Positions 21,556-39,622 of a DNA stretch of 41,441 bases are shown in pieces. Source of the DNA: a bacterium (GTDB lineage Bacteria; Babelota; Babeliae; Babelales; CAIQNR01); the NCBI GenBank assembly GCA_947505805.1, contig CANNMA010000003.1, positions 1-41,441 of the forward strand, given 5' to 3'. Made by a program: the position numbers and the translations under genes. Numbering within the stretch: the first letter of the stretch is position 1; the number at the start of each line of letters is the position of its first letter. The notes below the pieces were generated by a model that saw only the letters and a program-made list of their open reading frames with translations, was not told where the DNA came from and did no database searches.

Positions 21556-21988
21556 TCGAATTTCGATTTGTCGTAAGCGTAAACGTGTTGGTCGTGGTGG
21601 TTGTAGAGGTGGTACATCTGGTAAGGGAACTAAGGGTCAAAAAGCTCGTTCAGGTGCTGGAAGAAAACTGCGTCCTGCTTTTGAAGGTGGACAAATGCCT
21701 ATACACCGTCGTTTACCAAAACGCGGCTTTAATAACACTCAATTTAAAAAAGTCTTTGATTTAATTACATTGGCTCAGTTAGAACATTCTTTTGAAATTG
21801 GACAACAGGTAACAAAAGAATTACTTGTTGTTAAAGGTTTAGTAAAAAGTACTCGTGTATTAATTAAAGTATTGGGAACCGGCGTCTTATCAAAAAAATT
21901 GCATGTTTTTGCTGATGCTTATAGCGCTTCAGCTGCACAAGCAATAGCGGCATGTGGTGGAGAGGCTCGATTCACAAAAGAAGGATAA
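21536..21988 (+). CDS. rplO: 50S ribosomal protein L15
   Basis: [29 protein letters not shown]. Confidence 0.98.
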
Positions 21989-21992
21989 AGTA

Positions 21993-23312
21993 GTGATCAT
22001 TTTTAGGAATTTTGGGAATATGTTTCGTATTCCTGAGCTCAGAAAAAAACTGTTGTTTACACTTGGAGTGTTGGTAGTTTTTCGTTTAGGACAGTACATT
22101 CCTGTAATTGGGGTGAATGTTAATAAATTGCAAGAATTTATGCATCAATCCACTGCGTTAAGTGGTTTGCTTTCATATTTGGATGTTTTTTCTGCAGGTG
22201 CGCTTTCGCAATGTACTTTGTTTGCATTGGGTATCGGGCCTTATATTACGGCTTCAATTATGATGCAGATTTTGGGCTTCACAATTCCTGAATTTGAGCG
22301 TTTGCTTAAAGAAGGAGAGTATGGAAGAAAGCTTATTAATCAATATACAAAGTATCTTGCTTTGGGATTGAGTGTCGTTTGGGGCACAATGTATGCTTTA
22401 GGACTGGAATCATATGGATTAGTGGTAGAACCAGGATGGATGTTTAGATTCATGTTTATTCTTTCTTTGTCTGCTGGTTCTATGGTTGTCATGTGGTTGG
22501 GTGATCAAATTTCATTATTTGGAATTGGTAGTGGCGGTTCGATGATTATCTTTGCAGGTATAGTTGCTCGTTTTCCTGATTATGTTATTAGAACCATTCA
22601 TGCAGTTCAAATTGGAAAGCTAGATACAATTGTAGCTATTCTAATTTTATTGATTTTTATGGCGATTACTTCGTGTATTATTTTTCTTGAAAAAGGTGAA
22701 CGTAAGATTCCAGTTCAATATGCTCGTCGTGTTGTTGGTAATCGTGTTTATGGTGGACAAAGTACTTATATTCCATTTAAGATCAATAATGCTTCTGTTA
22801 TGCCTGTAATTTTTGCTTCTACAGTTTTAAATGCTTTTATTGGTGTGCCTGGTTTGTTTGCTAATAAATATAAATTTTGTTCTATGATTGTTCAAAAATT
22901 TTCTTATTCAGGTTTTTTGTTTAATGCAATTCAGTTCGCTTTAATTGTTTTCTTCTACTATATCTATACTGCGCTTGTTTTTAATCCTGATGAATTAGCT
23001 GATAATATTAAAAAAAGTGGTGGTTTTATTCCAAATGTTAGGCCTGGAAAAAGTACAGCCGAGTTTTTTAATGATATTTTAACAAAACTTGGATTAGTTG
23101 GTGCAATTTATTTGGCTATTTTAGCAATATTGCCAAACGCATTAAGTGCGCTTATTACGATGCCTTTTTATCTGGGCGGAACTGCTTTATTGATTGTGGT
23201 TGGGGTTGCTTTGGAAACATCGACTCAAATAGAATCGTATTTGATTGAAAGAAATTATGAGGGTTTTTTAACCTCAGGTAGGCTTAAATATTCAAGAGGA
23301 ACTCCACGTTGA
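21993..23312 (+). CDS. secY: Preprotein translocase subunit SecY
   Basis: FALGIGPYITASI, VMPVIFAS, GGFIPNVRPG, GGTALLIVVGV; GTG 21993 behind AAGGA preferred as start. Confidence 0.98.
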   Translation: MIIFRNFGNMFRIPELRKKLLFTLGVLVVFRLGQYIPVIGVNVNKLQEFMHQSTALSGLLSYLDVFSAGALSQCTLFALGIGPYITASIMMQILGFTIPEFERLLKEGEYGRKLINQYTKYLALGLSVVWGTMYALGLESYGLVVEPGWMFRFMFILSLSAGSMVVMWLGDQISLFGIGSGGSMIIFAGIVARFPDYVIRTIHAVQIGKLDTIVAILILLIFMAITSCIIFLEKGERKIPVQYARRVVGNRVYGGQSTYIPFKINNASVMPVIFASTVLNAFIGVPGLFANKYKFCSMIVQKFSYSGFLFNAIQFALIVFFYYIYTALVFNPDELADNIKKSGGFIPNVRPGKSTAEFFNDILTKLGLVGAIYLAILAILPNALSALITMPFYLGGTALLIVVGVALETSTQIESYLIERNYEGFLTSGRLKYSRGTPR

Positions 23313-28056: not shown

Positions 28057-28100
28057 AAAAATTAAAAAGAGCTGCGGAGAAATTCGCGGCTTTTTTTTTT
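28057..28100 (+). terminator. Intrinsic terminator of the ribosomal superoperon (copy 1 of a direct repeat)
   Basis: aaaaaGAGCTGCGGAgaaaTTCGCGGCTT followed by a T run. Confidence 0.9.
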
Positions 28101-28182
28101 GATAATTTTAGGCGGTACTTAAAAAGTAAAAATATAATTTGAAAGAAAAATTATGGAATAAAAAACAACTCAGTTATCGCAA

Positions 28183-28656
28183 ATGAAACTAGTTGGCCTT
28201 ACAGTGCGAACGAACAACGCTGTAGAAGCAGGAGAAAAAATCTATACAACAGGTGGTAAGATTCTGCCTTTAATTAGACGGTATTATCAAGATGGTGTAG
28301 CTGAAAAGATAGCTAATCGTAAGACTCCAGGAACAATTTATTGTGCTTATACAGAGTACGAGTCTGACTACACGGGTGATTATACCTATTTTATTGGTGA
28401 AGAAGTAACTTCTTTTGATATTGTTCCTGAAGAATTTTTTACTTTAGTTGTGCCAGCTCAAGAATACGTAAAATTTACTAATGGACCAGCAGCAATGCCT
28501 CAAGTATGTTCTGATGTCTGGGAAAAAATTTGGAAATCAACCGATCCTGAATTAGGTGGAAAACGTAGTTACAAGGTTGATTTTGAGGTTTATGATCAAC
28601 GTGCTACTGACCATCAAAACATTGTTCTTGATGTGTTTGTAGGTATCGAAGAATAA
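28183..28656 (+). CDS. GyrI-like / AraC effector-binding domain protein, probably N-terminally disrupted
   Basis: KLVGLTVRTNN, YTEYESDYTGDYTYFIG, W..IW, R.Y..DFEVYD pattern; upstream in-frame ATG 28153 is followed by TAA. Confidence 0.8.
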   Translation: MKLVGLTVRTNNAVEAGEKIYTTGGKILPLIRRYYQDGVAEKIANRKTPGTIYCAYTEYESDYTGDYTYFIGEEVTSFDIVPEEFFTLVVPAQEYVKFTNGPAAMPQVCSDVWEKIWKSTDPELGGKRSYKVDFEVYDQRATDHQNIVLDVFVGIEE

Positions 28657-28668
28657 CTTTTAGTTTTA

Positions 28669-28712
28669 AAAAATTAAAAAGAGCTGCGGAAAAATTCGCA
28701 GCTCTTTTTTTT
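28669..28712. terminator. Bidirectional intrinsic terminator (copy 2 of a direct repeat)
   Basis: aaaaaGAGCTGCGgaaaaattCGCAGCTCtttttttt between convergent genes. Confidence 0.9.
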
Positions 28713-28744
28713 AAAAAAATTTTGAATAGTTTAAGTACTGTTTT

Positions 28745-29701
28745 TTACAGAAATTTGTGCATACCAATTGATCCGTGCTTGCTTGGACAGGTTGATTTTT
28801 CTGCTGCTGCAAGTTCTTCGTAGCCCTGTTTTTTATAAAATAGTTTTTCTGATGGACAAGCCTGTAATGAAAGTTCGGTACATTCTTTTTGCTCTTTCAG
28901 CCATTGTTCAATAGTAGTTAAAAATTGACCCCGTAAATTATGGCAGTGAATGTCGAACTCCATGATATGGAGAACGGCAGTTTTTTCGGGAAATAGTTGA
29001 AGATGGCCATATCCAATAATGTTTGGTCCTTGATAGAAACAAAAATGAATATGTTCAGGGTGGTTAAAAGTCCATGTTAGCGGGTCAAAGAGAATATCTT
29101 TTTTTGCAAAATAGTTTTTTCTAAACTGTTTTGCTTGCTGCCACTCATGCGGATGAGCACAATGCATAAGTCGTATTTTATTGAAACCAGCTAGTGATGT
29201 GATTTTACGAATAAAACAGTCTTTACCTGAGCTATATCCAGTAAACATGCGATCTTTTTGAATTTCAAAAGAACTTTTTTGGGTTAAAAGGCCAGCTTTT
29301 AATTGTGCATATTCAACAACTGCATCCAAATGGGTTCGTAAATAATCTCTGAATCCAAGATTAAGGTCTATTTCTGGGTTTCCTGGTTTATACATATGAA
29401 GGTTGATTTTAGGTTTAGAATCTTTATTGAAATAAAATCGAAAGGGAATATTGTATTCCCCTTTGTACGTGTATTCCAGTGATTCTAAAAGTGTGATTGT
29501 GCGCGCAGGATCTTGTGCAACTACGATGATATCAAGAATAGGTTTTGCTGCTAATCCTGGTACTGATGTTGAACCGATATGATGAACTTCAAGACAATGT
29601 TGGCCAAGTTTTTTTTTGATAAGTGCGGCTTCTTTGCTAAAAAGTTCAGGCCATTGAGGATCGTAGGGCATAACTTCTATCTGTTTGATTTGCACGGTCA
29701 T
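28745..29701 (-). CDS. GrpB/UPF0157 nucleotidyltransferase-fold domain fused to a GNAT-like domain
   Basis: YDPQWP, HIGSTSVPGLAAKPILDI, FRDYLR, Y..LK; C-terminal IIGYGHLQ...FYKKQGY GNAT-like pattern. Confidence 0.85.
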   Translation of the reverse strand: MTVQIKQIEVMPYDPQWPELFSKEAALIKKKLGQHCLEVHHIGSTSVPGLAAKPILDIIVVAQDPARTITLLESLEYTYKGEYNIPFRFYFNKDSKPKINLHMYKPGNPEIDLNLGFRDYLRTHLDAVVEYAQLKAGLLTQKSSFEIQKDRMFTGYSSGKDCFIRKITSLAGFNKIRLMHCAHPHEWQQAKQFRKNYFAKKDILFDPLTWTFNHPEHIHFCFYQGPNIIGYGHLQLFPEKTAVLHIMEFDIHCHNLRGQFLTTIEQWLKEQKECTELSLQACPSEKLFYKKQGYEELAAAEKSTCPSKHGSIGMHKFL

Positions 29702-29770
29702 AGGTATTCCTCAATGGTAAAGGGGTGCGAACGAAATTTAAAAGTTTTAAAGAAGTTAGTCTAATTGATA

Positions 29771-29862
29771 CTGTAGATGTTCACAAATTAAGATTTTTTT
29801 CATTTTTTAGCACAAGACGTAGGTGTGCACTATGCGTGCAGCACCAAAGGGGTTGCTCACCC
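29771..29862 (+). repeat. Left arm of a 92-bp imperfect inverted repeat
   Basis: Reverse complement of 30245-30336; core 29810-29862 matches at 48/53 positions by manual alignment. Confidence 0.95.
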
Positions 29863-30244
29863 AACCCCTTTGGAAACAAGGGTGCAAACATGCTGTTTGA
29901 GCGCCTGTCGGCTACAACCTTCGTTGCGCCCTAATGGACGACAACTCAGTTCCGCCTGATACGGATTTTTTATAGAAGATTTACCATTTTTCAGAAGGTT
30001 ATTTTGGTGTGTTGTGTATTTATTATTAAGGAAAGGGACCTTCTCCGTCGTCCACAACGATATGAGATCGCGGCTGAGTGCGTAGCACACTGACAGATCG
30101 AATGAGTGTCGGGGATCCAGGCGTAACAAGAAAAAATCATATTTTATGTAATCTTTTATTTTTATAAAGACTTTTACAAAGTAACGTGCCCGACTTCGCT
30201 CGAAGAGCTATATCGTGGCACCACGCCTTAGCCTTGGCGTCGGC

Positions 30245-30336
30245 GGGTGAGCAACCTCTTTGGTGCTGCCCGCAGAGGGCACACCTGCGTCTTGTGCAAA
30301 AGAATAAAAAATCCTTCTATTTATGAACTTCTACAG
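30245..30336 (-). repeat. Right arm of a 92-bp imperfect inverted repeat
   Basis: gggtgagcaacctctttggtgctgcccgcagagggcacacctgcgtcttgtgc...ttatgaacttctacag pairs with 29771-29862. Confidence 0.95.
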
Positions 30337-30463
30337 AGATGACGAATAAAAAGTTCGTTTTTGAGCAACTAATCTTAAAAAAATGATAAATCATAAAAAA
30401 ATAGCTTCAATCTGAAAATAAATATAGGGTTAAATCTTTTTGATAAGCTCATTAGGAGGGCTT

Positions 30464-30491
30464 TTGCGATTACTTGAATTGTAAGTATACT
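30464..30491 (+). promoter_or_regulatory. Putative sigma70 promoter
   Basis: TTGCGA-16 nt-TATACT; mirrored upstream of the next gene. Confidence 0.55.
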
Positions 30492-30572
30492 CAATAGCAA
30501 TTACTTGTTTTTTTAAATGGAAAACAGTACAAAAGTGTGGGTTTTTTTAATTAATTCATGGAGGATATAATC

Positions 30573-31370
30573 ATGAATAAACGTTTATCATTGTTTTTAC
30601 TTACTGCGCTGTGTGCATCTGCACCGGTAGTAACTAAGGCTTCAGCGGATTCAATAGCGGATGAAATGGTCAGACATGTTGCAGATAAAGGGATGTCTGT
30701 TGTTGCAGATAAAATGCCCAAGTTTCTTGCAAATTACATAGTTACTGGTGTTACATCATTAGCTCTTGCTGGTATTGCAAATCATTATGAAAAAGCCAAA
30801 AAGAAAGCAATTAAGGCAGCAGTTGTAGTTGGAACAGTTAGTGCGCTTGCGTACTGGTATGTTAACAATCCTGAATCATTCAATGCTGCTATGATAATTA
30901 CTGTTAAAATTGGTAGTAGAGTTGCTGATGCGATTGCGCCCTATATTCCAACTAAAGAAGTTGTTAAGGATACTTTAGTAACTACTGCATCTGCTGTAGC
31001 TGATAAAGCTAAGGTAGCAGGTTCGGTTGCTCTTATTGAAGGTCAAAAACTTGCAAACCAAGCGTTTGAAGCTTTGCCAAGTAAAGAAACAATTATAGAG
31101 AATGCTTCTGTACTATCTGCAACTATCGGTGCAAAAATATCTTCAATTGCTCAACAAGTTATTGATTATGCTCAACCTAAGATTGCTTCAGCTGCTCATC
31201 AAGCTTCAGCCTATGCACAACCTTACATTGATGTGTTACAAGAAAAAGCAGTAACAGCTGTTAATGCTCTTGCTGAACATGAAAACATTATGAGAGTAGC
31301 ACATGGAATTAATGATTATTTGGCAGCTCCGGTTATAAATTCAACCATTAATTCGGTTATGGTTCATTAA
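30573..31370 (+). CDS. Hypothetical exported Ala/Val-rich protein
   Basis: GGAGG SD, then MNKRLSLFLLTALCASA signal peptide; two hydrophobic segments; (YI/AL)P(T/S)KE motif twice. Confidence 0.85.
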   Translation: MNKRLSLFLLTALCASAPVVTKASADSIADEMVRHVADKGMSVVADKMPKFLANYIVTGVTSLALAGIANHYEKAKKKAIKAAVVVGTVSALAYWYVNNPESFNAAMIITVKIGSRVADAIAPYIPTKEVVKDTLVTTASAVADKAKVAGSVALIEGQKLANQAFEALPSKETIIENASVLSATIGAKISSIAQQVIDYAQPKIASAAHQASAYAQPYIDVLQEKAVTAVNALAEHENIMRVAHGINDYLAAPVINSTINSVMVH

Positions 31371-31642: not shown

Positions 31643-33130
31643 ATGAATAAAAAATTTTTATCAATAGTTATATTGACATCAACATTTGCGCTTTCTGCGG
31701 CAGATGGTGGAAATCAAGTTTCTGTAGTTCCAACAACTACATCATCATGGAGTGATGTGCCGGTACTTGGTGTAGCGGTTAGGTTTTGGTCATATACAGC
31801 TACAGGGTTCTCTAATGCGCTAAAATCAGTTTTAGCAACTCAGACTACTCAACAACCAGCAGCATCAACAGAACCAATACAAACAGCAGCTGAGTATAAT
31901 GAATCATCTTTAGCTGAAGTAAAAAGATTAGAAGTAGATTATGAAGCATTAGAACAAGCAAAAACTCAAGGCTTTGTTGAAAGATTTACTCCTTCATTAG
32001 AAACAGGGTTCTGTGTCGCTGGTGGTGCAGCAGTTGGTGGACTAATTGGAAATCAATTTGTAAAAGAAGGTGATAACTTGATTGGTCAAAAAGGTTTAAA
32101 AATAGGCCTTCCAGCAGCTGCCGGAGCAGGTCTCGGAGGCTACTTCCGTAATGGAATACAAGTAGGAGCTTCAGCATTTACAGCAAAAGCAGTTTCTTAT
32201 ATTCCATCAAAAGAAGCTTCTGTTAATGCACTTTGTTTAGTAAAAGATGCAGTTGTTAGCGCAGGATCATCTGTTGTTACTTCTGTGAGTGAACATCCAG
32301 TTATAGCAACAACAGCCGCAGTTGCAGCAGTAGTTACTGGTTATGGTGTTTACTATAACAGTAGAGCTAAAGAAGCTCTTGTTGAAGATGCAAAAGAAGC
32401 TGTAAATGCTTTAGAGCTACCAGCATCATCAGAAAAAGGTGCAGAACAATCACTTTCAATACCAGAAAAAGCTGAAGTATTGGCACAAATTGCTCCTGAA
32501 AGATTGCATGATGAAAATCTAGTTGATGAACAAGTTGCAGCTCAAGAAGAAAATCTTCCAGCAGCACAACAACTAGTAGTAGAACCAGCAGTTATTTCAG
32601 CACCAGCTCGAGCAGTAACTGTTGAAGTAGAACACTCAGTAGTAAAACCAGTTCTAGCTCCAGCACCAGTACAAGAACCAGTTCTAGCTCCAGCACCAGT
32701 ACAAGAACCATTAGCAACAGTTGCAGCGGTACGAGCTTCTTTAAGAAAGCCTAAAGCTGTTACTGCAACCAATGTTGATAAATCTACCTTGCGCAATATT
32801 ATTGATGCAACTAAAATTCTTGCACAGCAGATGACTCCTGGAAACAACTTCAAACATTTCAACATCAATCTTGCTGATGACTTAAGTTTGCCAACAGTTA
32901 GACAGATTGCTGGGGTTCACCAATATGCATTAGAAACTATTCCCGCACATGTTGTTGAACTTGCTGATACTATTATTTCTTATTCAGCATTCTTGAATTA
33001 TGTTGCTGCAAAACGTGGTGGTAATCAGTATGGTTCAATGAGTCAAACTCATTTACGCAACATTCAACAAGCGATTGCTCAAGCAATAACTGACTTTGAT
33101 AATGCTACTCAAGAATTACTACACAGCTAA
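31643..33130 (+). CDS. Hypothetical exported protein with glycine-zipper segments and Pro/Ala/Glu linker
   Basis: GGAGG SD; MNKKFLSIVILTSTFALSA signal; GGAAVGGLIG, AAAGAGLGG; YIPSKE; PVLAPAPVQE twice. Confidence 0.88.
   Translation: MNKKFLSIVILTSTFALSAADGGNQVSVVPTTTSSWSDVPVLGVAVRFWSYTATGFSNALKSVLATQTTQQPAASTEPIQTAAEYNESSLAEVKRLEVDYEALEQAKTQGFVERFTPSLETGFCVAGGAAVGGLIGNQFVKEGDNLIGQKGLKIGLPAAAGAGLGGYFRNGIQVGASAFTAKAVSYIPSKEASVNALCLVKDAVVSAGSSVVTSVSEHPVIATTAAVAAVVTGYGVYYNSRAKEALVEDAKEAVNALELPASSEKGAEQSLSIPEKAEVLAQIAPERLHDENLVDEQVAAQEENLPAAQQLVVEPAVISAPARAVTVEVEHSVVKPVLAPAPVQEPVLAPAPVQEPLATVAAVRASLRKPKAVTATNVDKSTLRNIIDATKILAQQMTPGNNFKHFNINLADDLSLPTVRQIAGVHQYALETIPAHVVELADTIISYSAFLNYVAAKRGGNQYGSMSQTHLRNIQQAIAQAITDFDNATQELLHS
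32646..32710 (+). repeat. Perfect 30-nt tandem repeat (about 2.2 copies)
   Basis: aaccagttctagctccagcaccagtacaag twice, plus aacca. Confidence 0.95.
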
Positions 33131-33175: not shown

Positions 33176-33211
33176 AAGAGGTGTCCTTTTTTAAGGGCGC
33201 CTCTTTTTTTT
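33176..33211. terminator. Intrinsic terminator between convergent genes
   Basis: AAGAGGTGTCCTT-loop-AAGGGCGCCTCTT then T run abutting the sbcC stop. Confidence 0.8.
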
Positions 33212-35894
33212 ACCCCTGTTCTCGTACCGATGAACGTGAGCCATTTGGGCTTTTTTCGATCAAAAATTGTACCGGAAACTGGTCCTTCATTGCTGAAAGA
33301 TGGGAAACAATAATAATCTTTTCAAAATCGGTTTGAATCTTATAGATCGCATCCATAATCCGCGAAAGACCTTCTTCATCCTGAGAGCCAAATCCTTCAT
33401 CAATAATAAGTGTTTGTAGCGATGTTCCTGCACGGCGTGCAAGTAGTTTTGAAATAGCGATTCGTAAAGAAAAATCTATCCTAAATGCCTCTCCTCCTGA
33501 AAACATTTCATAGGGACGAATTCCCGTTGCATCTGAGATATTAATATCGAGGGTTTCTTTAACTCCCCCTTTTTTTAAATCTCGTAACGATTCGATAAAA
33601 ATATGTGCCTGATTATCTGTAAGCCGAGACAGCAGATCATTTGCTTCTTGTTCTATTTCAGGCAGTGCATCTTCGATTAACAGTGCTTGAATACCATCTT
33701 TTCCAAAAGCTTGAGCGAGCATCTGATACTCTTGCAGTTCTTGCGTAATACTTTTGATTTGAGTATCAAATTCTTTGCACTGTTCAAGTTGTTGTTCAAG
33801 TTTTTTATGTTCAGCTTCAAAGGTTCCTTGTTCTTTAAGGGCCTGTTCTTTTGTTAATGTTAATTCAAGTGCTGTTTGCTTGTAGGCTCTTTCGTCTTCA
33901 GAAAGCTGTTGAGCGTCTTGTGGAACTGTTTTAAAAAGAAGTAGTTGTGCACTACTACTTTTTTCTTGTAGCCAGATCTGACGTATAGAACAAGCAATTT
34001 TATGAGCATTGTTTTTTCGTTCTTGTTGAAGGCTTCTATCTTCATCTTTGTTATTCCATTGGACCATCTGTTTTTCAAGAAGGCTGAGTTGCTCTGTTAT
34101 TGATTTTAAACGAGTTGGAATAAGTCCATGCTGATTGATAATCAGTTCACACTGCTTTTGAGCTTGTTTGTTTTTGATGAATAATTCTGATTCGGTAAAG
34201 CTGAGCATCGCAGTTTTTTCTGCTTCAAGCATTGTTTTTTGAAGTTGATCAATTTCGTCTTTAAAGACTTCACTTTTGTTTTTACTAAGGGTAATAAATT
34301 GGTGCTGTTGGGTGAGCGCATGAGTCAGAGTTGTTTGTTTTTGAAGGAGTTCGTCAATTTGTTTACTAACAAAAATAGCTTGTTTTTGTTTTTCTATTTG
34401 TTCTTTGAGTGTGGCAAGGGCTTGTTTTAATCGGGTAATTCGGTGACTAAAAAAAGCTTCTTGGTCTTCAAATTTTTTTGCTAAAAATCGCTTTCGGGCA
34501 AGAGATAAATTTTGTTCACATAAGGGACAGCTTGGATTATCGGGAGTATGAGCAAGTTGTTTTTTATGCCCCAGACTTTGGAGTTCTTGTGTTGCTCGTT
34601 TACCTTTTTCAATCCAGGTTAAATAGAATGTTTTTTGTCGTTCAAACTGTTTTTCTAGAGCTGCAGTATCATTAATAAGCAGGGTAGGGTCACTATTTTT
34701 TTGACTGATTGCAAGTTGCTCAGAACAATCATGTAATTCAAGCGTGAATTTTTGGAGTTCTAAAGAAAGTTCATGCTGCTTTCTTGTTTCAAGTGCATAG
34801 TTGGTTGCAATGTGTTCAAGGGTACGTTTTGTTTGATTGGTGCTTTCTTCATATTGTTTTTTATGTTGAGTGATCAATAACTGTTCTTGTTCTTTATAGA
34901 GTAAAAGATTTTCTTTGGATTCTAAAAGTTCTTGATAGTGATTTTGGCATTGCGAAAAATCTTCTAAAAGAGCAGCTTTTTTAGCTTCTAATTTTTTTCT
35001 ATCAGGGAGAATTAGATGTTCTTTGTGTGTTTGTTTCCATTCTTTAACACTCGCACGAAAAGCAGCTTCAGCCTCGTTTTTTTGTTTAAGAATTTGTTCA
35101 TATTCAAAATGAAGTAATGCAGCAGAAGATTGTTTTTGTATGAGATTGTTTTTACGGCTTTCAAGATCTGCTTTGGTTATTGCTAGTTTTTGTTCTTCTG
35201 TACTAACTGTTTTAAGCGTAGTTGAAAGTATTGATAATTTTTCTTTGACCGCTGGTAGTTGTTCAATTTCACGGCTTAAATGTTCGCTAATTTTTGTCGA
35301 CTTTTCTTTTTCCTGAGTTAAAAGTTTTATTTTTTCAAGCGCATATTTTTTTGCTTTTTCATAACGATTAAGGCCTAAAATATTTGCTAAAATATCTTTA
35401 CGTTCCTTAGGGAGTTTTTTTGAAAACTCATTTGCTTGGCCTTGGCGCAAAAAAGATGAATTGATAAATGCTTCATAATCAAGGCCAACCGTTTGTTCAA
35501 TTTTTTCTTGAGTACGGCGAATTGTTTTTTCAGTAAGGGATCGGTATCCCGCTTCTTCTTGGCAGTAGATACCAAAATCAACATGGCTAGTAGGTTTGCC
35601 ATATTTTGTAGTGAACATGCGACGAATACGATATTGCTGACCATTAAAAATAAAATCGAGAATAACAATCATATCCGTTTGTCCAAGGCGTAATAAACCC
35701 TGATCAGGTTTTCCTGTTGTTGATACTTTGCGTGCTTGTCCCCAGATCGCCCAAGTTAATGCATCAAGAAGAGCTGATTTTCCGTGTCCATTTTTTCCGG
35801 ATAAGCAGATAAGTTTATAGGGAGTAAAATCTATTACTTGTGGTACTGATCCGTAGCTTAAAAAATTTTGTATTGAAAGTTTTAATGGGATCAT
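33210..35894 (-). CDS. sbcC: SbcC/Rad50-like SMC ATPase
   Basis: Walker A GKNGHGKS, Q-loop LRQG, central zinc hook CPLC, signature FSGGE, Walker B IIDEGFG, long coiled coils. Confidence 0.9.
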   Translation of the reverse strand: MIPLKLSIQNFLSYGSVPQVIDFTPYKLICLSGKNGHGKSALLDALTWAIWGQARKVSTTGKPDQGLLRLGQTDMIVILDFIFNGQQYRIRRMFTTKYGKPTSHVDFGIYCQEEAGYRSLTEKTIRRTQEKIEQTVGLDYEAFINSSFLRQGQANEFSKKLPKERKDILANILGLNRYEKAKKYALEKIKLLTQEKEKSTKISEHLSREIEQLPAVKEKLSILSTTLKTVSTEEQKLAITKADLESRKNNLIQKQSSAALLHFEYEQILKQKNEAEAAFRASVKEWKQTHKEHLILPDRKKLEAKKAALLEDFSQCQNHYQELLESKENLLLYKEQEQLLITQHKKQYEESTNQTKRTLEHIATNYALETRKQHELSLELQKFTLELHDCSEQLAISQKNSDPTLLINDTAALEKQFERQKTFYLTWIEKGKRATQELQSLGHKKQLAHTPDNPSCPLCEQNLSLARKRFLAKKFEDQEAFFSHRITRLKQALATLKEQIEKQKQAIFVSKQIDELLQKQTTLTHALTQQHQFITLSKNKSEVFKDEIDQLQKTMLEAEKTAMLSFTESELFIKNKQAQKQCELIINQHGLIPTRLKSITEQLSLLEKQMVQWNNKDEDRSLQQERKNNAHKIACSIRQIWLQEKSSSAQLLLFKTVPQDAQQLSEDERAYKQTALELTLTKEQALKEQGTFEAEHKKLEQQLEQCKEFDTQIKSITQELQEYQMLAQAFGKDGIQALLIEDALPEIEQEANDLLSRLTDNQAHIFIESLRDLKKGGVKETLDINISDATGIRPYEMFSGGEAFRIDFSLRIAISKLLARRAGTSLQTLIIDEGFGSQDEEGLSRIMDAIYKIQTDFEKIIIVSHLSAMKDQFPVQFLIEKSPNGSRSSVREQG

Positions 35895-38307: not shown

Positions 38308-38384
38308 GGGCCCATAGCTCAGCTGGTCAGAGCAATCGGCTCATAACCGAGAGGTCCCAGGTTCAAGCCCTGGTGGGCCCACCA
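38308..38384 (+). tRNA. tRNA with CAU anticodon, most likely tRNA-Ile2 (lysidine-modified)
   Basis: Cloverleaf GGGCCCA/TGGGCCC, D arm GCTC/GAGC, loop CTCATAA, T arm CCAGG-TTCAAGC-CCTGG, encoded CCA; C4:G69, C5:G68, A73; lacks initiator features. Confidence 0.93.
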
Positions 38385-38426: not shown

Positions 38427-39161
38427 ATGAAAACAACTCCTTTCTCTCGCTTTATACGTCTTATAGAATTTGATCAATCAGTTATTACTCTTGAAAAAGA
38501 GTTAGCCATTGCCGATAACGCTTTTGAGCAATTAAGGCAGACTTTAGAAACTCTTACTTCTGATATTGAAAAAGAACGAGCACATGTGCGTGATTTACGT
38601 AAAAATGTTGATGCACAAGAATTACATATGAAGACTCTTGATCAAGATGAAAAAGTTGCTCGTGAACGCGCTACTCTTGCACTTACTCCTCGTGAATATC
38701 AAGGTTTAAAAAAAGAGTCTGATAATTTAAAACAACAGCAGCATGAACATGAAGAAGTTCTTATGGCCGCTTGGAATAGTTTGGAACAAGCACAAAAAAT
38801 GCTTGTGGTAAAAGAACAGACGGTCAAAGAGCAACAACGTCTTTTACAAGAACAGATGAATCAACTTGATGAAACTCAAAAAAAATTGCTTGATCAGATT
38901 GATGAACATGATCAAGGACGCAAAGAGTATCAGCAGGATATCCCCCAAGATTGGCTCGATAAATATGGGCGTATGCGCAACACGGTTAAAAATCCAGTTG
39001 TTCCTTTGGTGGCAGGTACCTGTGGCGCATGTTCATGTACTATTACCAGCCAAGTAATGATGCAGCTAGATCAAAATAAAATGATTACCTGTAGTAGTTG
39101 TTATCGTTTGATCTACAAAAACTTTGAAGATAATTCTTCTCATTCAGAGAAAAAGCAATGA
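38427..39161 (+). CDS. Coiled-coil protein with C-terminal C4 zinc ribbon (DUF164 / CT398 / HP0958-like)
   Basis: Long coiled coil, then CGAC...CSSCYRLIY; sits before RNase HI. Confidence 0.88.
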   Translation: MKTTPFSRFIRLIEFDQSVITLEKELAIADNAFEQLRQTLETLTSDIEKERAHVRDLRKNVDAQELHMKTLDQDEKVARERATLALTPREYQGLKKESDNLKQQQHEHEEVLMAAWNSLEQAQKMLVVKEQTVKEQQRLLQEQMNQLDETQKKLLDQIDEHDQGRKEYQQDIPQDWLDKYGRMRNTVKNPVVPLVAGTCGACSCTITSQVMMQLDQNKMITCSSCYRLIYKNFEDNSSHSEKKQ

Positions 39162-39622
39162 CAAAATCAAAAGGTTGGTGCTTGTTTGTTGATGGTGCAT
39201 CACGCGGCAATCCAGGATTAAGTGGCGCAGGAATTTATCTTACGCATAATGGTGAAGCTGTTGCCAAGCGTGGGTATTTTATTGGAAGACACACCAATAA
39301 CGAAGCTGAGTATCTTGCCCTTTTGATCGGTGTTTTTATAGCAAAAAAACATATGAAAGAAGCATGCGAGCTGCGTGTATTTTCAGATTCACTCCTTTTA
39401 ATGAAACAGATGATTGGTGAATATCGTGTCAGAAAGCCAGAACTTATAGTACTCCATCAACTAGTTACAAAACATCTTGATGGATTTTCTTGCACATTTG
39501 CTCATGTCTATCGTGAGCAAAACGTTGATGCTGATGCGCTTGCTAATACAGGAATCGATACAAAAACAACTCTTCCTGTTTCTTTTATTTCATTATTACG
39601 AACTCATGGAATTCATGTTTAG
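39158..39622 (+). CDS. rnhA: Ribonuclease HI family protein
   Basis: FVDGASRGNPG, TNNEAEY, SDS.L, HVYREQN..ADALAN. Confidence 0.92.
   Translation: MTKSKGWCLFVDGASRGNPGLSGAGIYLTHNGEAVAKRGYFIGRHTNNEAEYLALLIGVFIAKKHMKEACELRVFSDSLLLMKQMIGEYRVRKPELIVLHQLVTKHLDGFSCTFAHVYREQNVDADALANTGIDTKTTLPVSFISLLRTHGIHV

Follow-up and report, generated by a model that had tools for sequence, protein, structure and literature searches.

What is a 566-bp stretch bounded by long inverted arms, and how did it come to lie between two divergent bacterial genes? The element spans positions 29771..30336 of the window, which is the whole 41,441-base stretch of DNA analysed here and the frame for all coordinates. It occupies most of the gap between a GrpB-family gene on the minus strand and a gene for a protein with a signal-peptide-like N-terminus on the plus strand. 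The two flanking genes and the parts of the element are, from left to right:

28745-29701, minus strand, starting at 29701: GrpB-family gene
29771..29862, plus strand: left arm, 92 nt (repeat search, sequence)
29771..29788, plus strand: left terminus, 18 nt, CTGTAGATGTTCACAAAT, matching the right terminus at 16/18 positions; candidate binding end for a transposase
29810..29862, plus strand: left GC-rich core, 53 nt, 48/53 identical to the right core
29822..29845, no strand assigned: left copy of the arm-internal hairpin, with 9 bp, a single bulged G and a loop of 5 nt
29844..29873, no strand assigned: perfect 12-bp palindrome around a 6-nt loop, at the left arm's inner edge, with no sequence counterpart in the right arm
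29863..29911, plus strand: left extension of the inverted homology, gapped, ending at GTCGG (alignment)
29951..29971, plus strand: weak terminator-like site, a 4-bp hairpin and then T6, about 180-200 nt inside the left end
30036..30125, no strand assigned: GC-rich block in the centre, 57% GC, its fold unremarkable (z +0.55 and +0.85 for 30030-30135)
30131..30148, minus strand: weak terminator-like site, a 4-bp AT hairpin and then T6, roughly as far inside the right end
30190..30244, minus strand: right extension of the inverted homology, gapped (alignment)
30223..30240, no strand assigned: short hairpin ACGCC / GGCGT, of unrelated sequence, at the corresponding site inside the right arm
30245..30336, minus strand: right arm, 92 nt, reverse complement of the left, 76/92 ungapped (repeat search, sequence)
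30245..30297, minus strand: right GC-rich core
30262..30285, no strand assigned: arm-internal hairpin, right copy, the same 9 pairs with one pair changed from A-T to C-G by a double change
30319..30336, minus strand: right terminal 18 nt, counterpart of 29771-29788
30573-31370, plus strand, start at 30558/30573: 265-aa protein with a signal-peptide-like N-terminus

The repeat search found the two 92-nt arms to be 83% complementary and separated by 382 nt. Aligned without gaps, they differ at 16/92 positions. No other inverted repeat in the window comes near them in length, the runner-up being 42 nt long at 71%. The inverted arms are real and far beyond chance. When the 856-bp intergenic region was aligned to its reverse complement, the best local score was 53, against 12.6 +/- 2.2 (maximum 24) for 300 dinucleotide-preserving shuffles. 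When the left half was globally aligned with the reverse-complemented right half, the inverted homology was seen to extend past 92 nt, with indels, to about 29911 on the left and 30190 on the right. The extended homology reads GGTGC..A.AT.GCT.TT.GAGCG..GTCGG.

The identity between the arms is uneven. The terminal 18 nt (arm positions 1-18) match at 16/18 positions, an AT-rich linker (19-39) at 12/21 without gaps, and the GC-rich core (40-92) at 48/53. At the outer ends the homology stops abruptly at CTGTAG. Five differences separate the two cores. Those at arm positions 59 and 67 together convert one A-T pair of the arm-internal hairpin to C-G, and that at position 62 falls in the hairpin loop. 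The remaining two, at positions 50 and 80, are transitions that are G-U compatible on the plus strand. The compensatory double change is suggestive; it comes from two sequences only and is not significant. Between the core and the extension about 20 nt have been replaced, with the perfect palindrome on the left and the unrelated short hairpin on the right. Farther in, each half has its weak hairpin and T6, and neither of these sites was called by a terminator scan of 29500-30700, which found 0 sites.

No target-site duplication was found. The best direct repeat flanking the element is 3 nt long, even when the boundaries are shifted by +/-3, and direct repeats of that length were found at 52% of 2000 random position pairs. 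The first-pass annotation had described equal-length reverse-complement arms with a 48/53 core and CTGTAG...CTACAG ends, lying in a large gap between divergent genes, together with further hairpins, two core mismatches compatible with G-U pairing on the plus strand and no clear target duplication. Repeat search and alignment reproduced the arms, their ends and their core, and the other four points held as well.

The element is made of alternating AT-rich and GC-rich blocks. Along its length the GC content of seven consecutive blocks is 21, 55, 27, 57, 17, 63 and 23%; the value is 37.4% for the whole window and 26-32% for the flanking intergenic DNA. The blocks of 55%, 57% and 63% are three of the six GC-richest non-overlapping 100-nt windows in the 41 kb. 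When folded, the full 566 nt gave z = -13.9 on the plus strand and -13.3 on the minus strand, a trivial consequence of the arms. The interior without the arms folds at -108.6 and -108.9 kcal/mol on the two strands (z -1.9 and -2.8), little better than shuffles. It folds equally on both strands and therefore gives no strand-specific signal. Each half of the element, taken separately, folds somewhat better than shuffles, with z of -2.3 and -3.3. The GC-rich centre has no unusual fold and therefore looks imported rather than like a structured RNA. Six promoter-like sites lie in 29500-30700, where 3.0 +/- 1.5 are expected, and such matches in the region do not exceed chance. They include TTGATA-18-TAAGAT at 29765-29794 on the plus strand, which has no counterpart at the right arm. 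One consensus-like site, 30168-30141 on the minus strand, is inside the element.

By these searches the element does not look coding. Of 22 stop-to-stop frames of at least 25 aa in 29702-30557, 17 were scanned with Pfam and the five omitted are wholly or almost wholly outside the element. The scan gave one sub-threshold match (zf-C17orf113, E 0.013, 15.7 bits against a cutoff of 29.5). There is no transposase ORF between the inverted repeats as judged by Pfam domains in these 17 frames. The 69-aa and 46-aa ORFs of the arms found no homologues in large protein sets, not even themselves. The longest ORF in the element, 90 aa in the interior, has no real homologue among 1.84 billion representatives. 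Its single match, over 24 residues of a 425-aa tandem-repeat ORF, is a spurious tandem-repeat artefact.

Coding arms were also considered and rejected. Read inward, both arms would encode the Cys-rich peptide TRRRCALC(V/G)QHQRGCSP, and 4/5 core differences are at synonymous third positions. The right copy, however, has a TAG 7 codons upstream of the peptide and no ATG, GTG or TTG after it, and the extended homology shifts the frame. By our own calculation, 4/5 differences in one phase are expected in about 14% of cases over three phases, so this periodicity is not significant.

Known RNA families and other kinds of non-coding site gave no identity either. At the gathering score the only Rfam match in the whole window is a tRNA-Met at 38308-38381; at permissive thresholds the best match in 29650-30600 has an E value of 2.2, and all are far below gathering. 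A replication origin or terminus was rejected. The relaxed DnaA-box pattern occurs 5 times in the window against 9.45 expected, once in the element, and GC skew is positive in 18/20 2-kb windows with no turn of the cumulative curve at the element. An attC-like site was rejected by eye: the left palindrome carries GTT...AAC in its stem, which is not the order of R''/R' in the consensus.

The element is an orphan, with no second copy or relative in the collections searched. In the 41-kb window blastn-short found only the two arms. A covariance model of the arms, run over the whole window with filters off, scored them at 122 bits, and the next match at 13.5 bits with E about 1. A 22-mer from the core with one free position had 0 exact matches in 185,579 species-representative genomes (one genome per species). 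Blastn found no match in 72,556 plasmid or 50,697 phage records, at E-value limits that a short terminal inverted repeat (TIR) match would fail.

Nor was an enzyme found that could have moved the element. Among 25 of the 55 ORFs of at least 100 aa in the window, none has a recombinase, transposase (including Y1/HUH) or reverse transcriptase domain. The other 30 are taken to be ribosomal-cluster genes or antisense overlaps, by order and size only. The first-pass annotation had seen the element as non-coding and as having no transposase or reverse transcriptase. The frame scan and the homologue searches bear out the first statement, and the second holds for the 25/55 ORFs and the 17 element frames. 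That annotation had also proposed a comparison with Rfam, which matched no family to the element, and a search for further copies of the arms; as far as the 41-kb window and the 22-mer search of the 185,579 genomes reach, that search returned none.

What kind of element would leave such a trace? Our preference, a tentative one held at rather less than even confidence, is a foldback-type DNA transposon, foreign in origin and non-autonomous, that is solitary or a relic. According to this model only the two transposon ends would remain, each about 145 nt long and inverted around a short non-coding centre. Its source would have been richer in GC, and its landing site the AT-rich promoter region that separates the GrpB-family and secreted-protein genes. 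The well-conserved termini of 18 nt (CTGTAGAWGTTCAYAAAT), the hairpin-bearing GC-rich subterminal block, or both would be bound by a transposase supplied from elsewhere, which would then cut at CTGTAG and paste the element. The present copy is probably immobile, and the locus has no sign of present transposition activity. The mobility, the trans-acting enzyme and the foreign origin are what we infer.

Several observations argue for a transposon relic. First, the arms are far beyond chance. Second, the termini and the subterminal core are better kept than the linker, and the homology has a sharp end at CTGTAG. Uneven conservation of this sort is typical of transposon ends and is not expected of a neutrally decaying duplication. 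Third, GC-rich blocks stand in an AT-rich window, and they include a centre that has no special fold. Fourth, the element is non-coding and belongs to no Rfam family. Against the same reading stand the lack of a target-site duplication, of a second copy in the window, of a 22-mer match in the 185,579 genomes and of a plasmid or phage match. No transposase occurs among the 25/55 scanned ORFs and no parent element was found. Size, arm length and GC content are also outside the range typical of prokaryotic miniature elements (MITEs).

The comparison with MITEs shows both sides. One account describes those of prokaryotes as typically <500 bp and AT-rich, with TIRs of about 4-30 bp (PMC10969869). 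Among the examples it gives of MITEs and of deletion derivatives of insertion sequences (IS) are QMITE1/2 of Coxiella, Chunjie, Correia and ERIC (PMC10969869). Like them, the element is non-coding, has terminal inverted repeats and sits at an AT-rich intergenic site; its predicted transcript forms a very stable stem-loop, and its termini are better kept than the adjoining sequence. Unlike them, it is 566 bp long with arms of 92 to about 145 nt, has GC-rich blocks and lacks direct repeats at its ends, and neither a second copy nor a related IS was seen. The same account notes that the direct repeats flanking MITEs wane with age (PMC10969869).

The total size and arm length of the element are within the usual range of the foldback or long-TIR non-autonomous DNA transposons of eukaryotes. 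MITEs are reportedly present in amoebal giant viruses as well. The likely host of this bacterial lineage is a protist, so exposure to such elements is conceivable; the likeness is a pure analogy, and unlike eukaryotic foldback transposons the element has no TA or other target duplication.

Next to the transposon relic, the reading that survives best is an inert one, which we consider unlikely. Here the element would be an old local inverted duplication or a horizontally acquired scrap, with no function and no transposition history, and its hairpins would be by-products of GC-rich palindromic sequence. The single locus in the window, the missing target-site duplication and the lack of relatives in the collections searched are consistent with it. 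So are the centre without an unusual fold and the arms, which are 17% diverged and carry indels beyond 92 nt. What speaks against it is the pattern of that divergence, with 48/53 in the core and 16/18 at the termini set against 12/21 in the linker. In addition, two of the five core changes together preserve a base pair, the second making good the first, and a third lies in the loop. Finally, GC-rich blocks persist in an AT-rich genome, and these count against a local duplication because duplicated native DNA would be AT-rich.

A structured RNA is less probable, and we regard it as improbable overall. The locus could be transcribed into one long fold-back RNA, or it could hold two convergent paralogous small RNA genes of about 170-200 nt. 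In the two-gene version each would read inward from its AT-rich end through the conserved hairpin block to the weak hairpin and T6. The GC-rich islands in an AT-rich intergenic region would fit such genes, as would halves that fold better than shuffles, and both halves contain GATTTTTT about equally far in. A double change leaves the 9-bp hairpin intact, next to it one hairpin has given way to another in the same position, and the promoter-like TTGATA-18-TAAGAT stands at the left end. That site, however, is not common to both arms and comes from a set of six where 3.0 +/- 1.5 are expected. There is no Rfam match, the terminator scan is empty, the fold has no strand asymmetry once the arms are removed, and the covariation is drawn from only two sequences. 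A helix of at least 92 bp is unlike known functional RNAs. It would also be a substrate of RNase III, which counts further against this reading.

There is only a slim chance that the element is an inverton, in which a site-specific recombinase would flip the 382-bp interior, so that transcription would switch between the GrpB-family gene on one side and, on the other, two signal-peptide proteins encoded downstream. As in fimS- and hin-like switches, inverted repeats bracket a few hundred bp upstream of exported-protein genes, here between divergent genes, and genes of this kind are often under phase variation. The two downstream proteins have signal-peptide-like N-termini and no known family, and the interior holds one promoter-like site, 30168-30141. 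Set against this, promoter-like matches are not above chance, no recombinase is found among the 25/55 ORFs scanned in the 41-kb window, and the arms are far longer and less perfect than the usual invertase sites. In one survey more than 75% of 10,983 PhaseFinder invertons were <300 bases (PMC11602134), and at 566 bp the element is longer than most.

A broader proposal joins mobility and switching, and to us it is a long shot. The arms would be recognition modules of an undescribed mobile or recombination system of Dependentiae. A tagged DNA hairpin of conserved structure within each arm of about 145 nt would be read by a single-strand-specific (HUH-type) or site-specific recombinase encoded elsewhere in the genome, which would move the element or flip its interior, thereby switching the adjacent secreted proteins in an obligate intracellular symbiont. 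The first-pass annotation had singled out the element as a candidate for an undescribed system, reading it as REPIN/MITE-like and mobilised in trans, as an invertible segment or as a long fold-back ncRNA. The tests lean away from an undescribed system: a single locus in 41 kb, no Rfam match, no strand-specific fold without the arms and no recombinase or HUH transposase among the 25/55 ORFs. As far as the evidence goes, the inverted-repeat element is unclassified but of a general kind already known, and not a demonstrable new system.

A further reading is very doubtful. It takes the element as a REP/REPIN- or TIRtron-like substrate of an HUH tyrosine transposase (RAYT/TIRYT), with tagged arm hairpins recognised as single-stranded DNA. 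The element would then be a tail-to-tail pair of hairpins or a TIRtron shell that has lost its gene. REPs have been described as 20-40-bp imperfect palindromes with an unpaired GTAG-type tag at one end (PMC3733652). The same source mentions REPs with a GTAG tag, dimers in inverted orientation that can form larger hairpins, and tyrosine transposase genes flanked by long TIRs, and gives dimer spacers of mostly 20-100 bp (PMC3733652). The likeness is there: each arm has an imperfect palindrome of about 24 nt, the two are an inverted pair, and they could fold each by itself or together into a single large hairpin. GTAG in the left arm (29819-22) stands at the 5' foot of the palindrome, overlapping the first stem base by 1 nt, and the palindrome is kept in the right arm by the compensatory change. 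The right arm, however, has GCAG, so only the left arm is tagged. From 29845 to 30262 the hairpins are separated by 416 nt rather than 20-100 bp, and about 70 more nt around the hairpin are conserved. There is no high copy number, with no other copy in the 41 kb. No RAYT gene was seen in the window, and no Y1 transposase domain in the scanned ORFs or the 17 element frames.

The last alternative, a chimeric fold-back junction made during assembly or during multiple-displacement amplification (a method common for uncultured lineages and known for such artefacts), is scarcely credible: chimeras of this type give exact inverted copies, and the arms, whose sequence occurs nowhere else in the window, differ by 16/92 substitutions and by indels and are therefore unlikely to be an assembly or amplification chimera.

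The importance of the locus depends on which of these readings applies and on the host. The host is probably a member of Babeliales (Dependentiae), judging by the relatives of its RpoA. Of 7,999 entries scored, 7,400 are relatives of this protein at E <= 1e-20; the best is 93% identical, and two of the 120 matches listed, both at 70% identity, are named 'Candidatus Babeliales bacterium'. The host is likely amoeba-associated. The genome of Babela massiliensis, the one described cultured genome of the lineage, is reported to carry only one transposase, of the IS4 family, and to lack phage and plasmid genes (PMC4378268). Neither 'inverted' nor 'palindrom' occurs in the available part of the text of that genome paper (PMC4378268). 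A literature search on Dependentiae and inverted repeats found nothing relevant.

If further copies or both orientations exist, the element would matter more, since no phase switch or repeat family would have been described in Dependentiae before it. If only a stranded transposon remnant is present, it would have little importance beyond annotation, as a horizontal-transfer scar in a poorly known, uncultured lineage. In either case the element sits directly upstream of two exported proteins of unknown family with signal-peptide-like N-termini. These are the consecutive 265-aa and 495-aa products of 30573-31370 and 31643-33130, both on the plus strand, and they gave no lead in Pfam, NCBIfam, PADLOC or the ESM Atlas. 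The 495-aa protein carries a short PVLAPAPVQEP tandem repeat. On the other side, the GrpB domain of the neighbouring 318-aa protein spans only residues 7-168, and about 150 aa at its C-terminus have no family. This neighbour gave 41 pattern matches in the species-representative genome collection, none of them a relative by tblastn.

Beyond the secreted-protein genes lies an 894-aa SbcC/Rad50-like ATPase (33210-35894, minus strand), with no adjoining SbcD-like nuclease gene. It has sub-cutoff SbcC/Rad50 matches in NCBIfam and an LmuB-like match in PADLOC (E 2.8e-20). Across seven neighbours PADLOC gave only generic SMC/Rad50-type matches for this protein and weak ones for a 173-aa ORF. SbcCD is described as cutting DNA hairpins (PMC3733652). 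The closeness of the gene to a long inverted repeat is probably a coincidence.

The scanned ORFs of the window include L13, adenylate kinase, methionine aminopeptidase, S4, RpoA and L17, and the RVT_3/RNase H protein at 39158-39622 is of the RNase HI type. The first six lie among a run of small plus-strand ORFs, which is taken to be the str-S10-spc-alpha ribosomal cluster, by order and size only. The segment 21954-28040 begins with a 452-aa ORF (21954-23312), taken as secY by order and size only, followed by the genes for adenylate kinase, methionine aminopeptidase, S4, RpoA and L17, a gene order unlike that of gamma-proteobacteria.

Two other repeat features were seen in the window. At its left edge a 9-bp-period array (repeats at 1-278) encodes a Gly/His-rich tract (GHGG/GHDGH) in a minus-strand ORF at 3-347. 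This ORF has a hydrophobic N-terminus and no Pfam family, and it runs off the window. Nearer to the element, two 49-nt direct repeats (28057-28105 and 28669-28717) are 90% identical, and each is a terminator-like hairpin between A- and T-runs. They flank a Cass2/GyrI-like gene at 28183-28656, which looks as if it had been inserted downstream of rplQ together with a duplicated bidirectional terminator.
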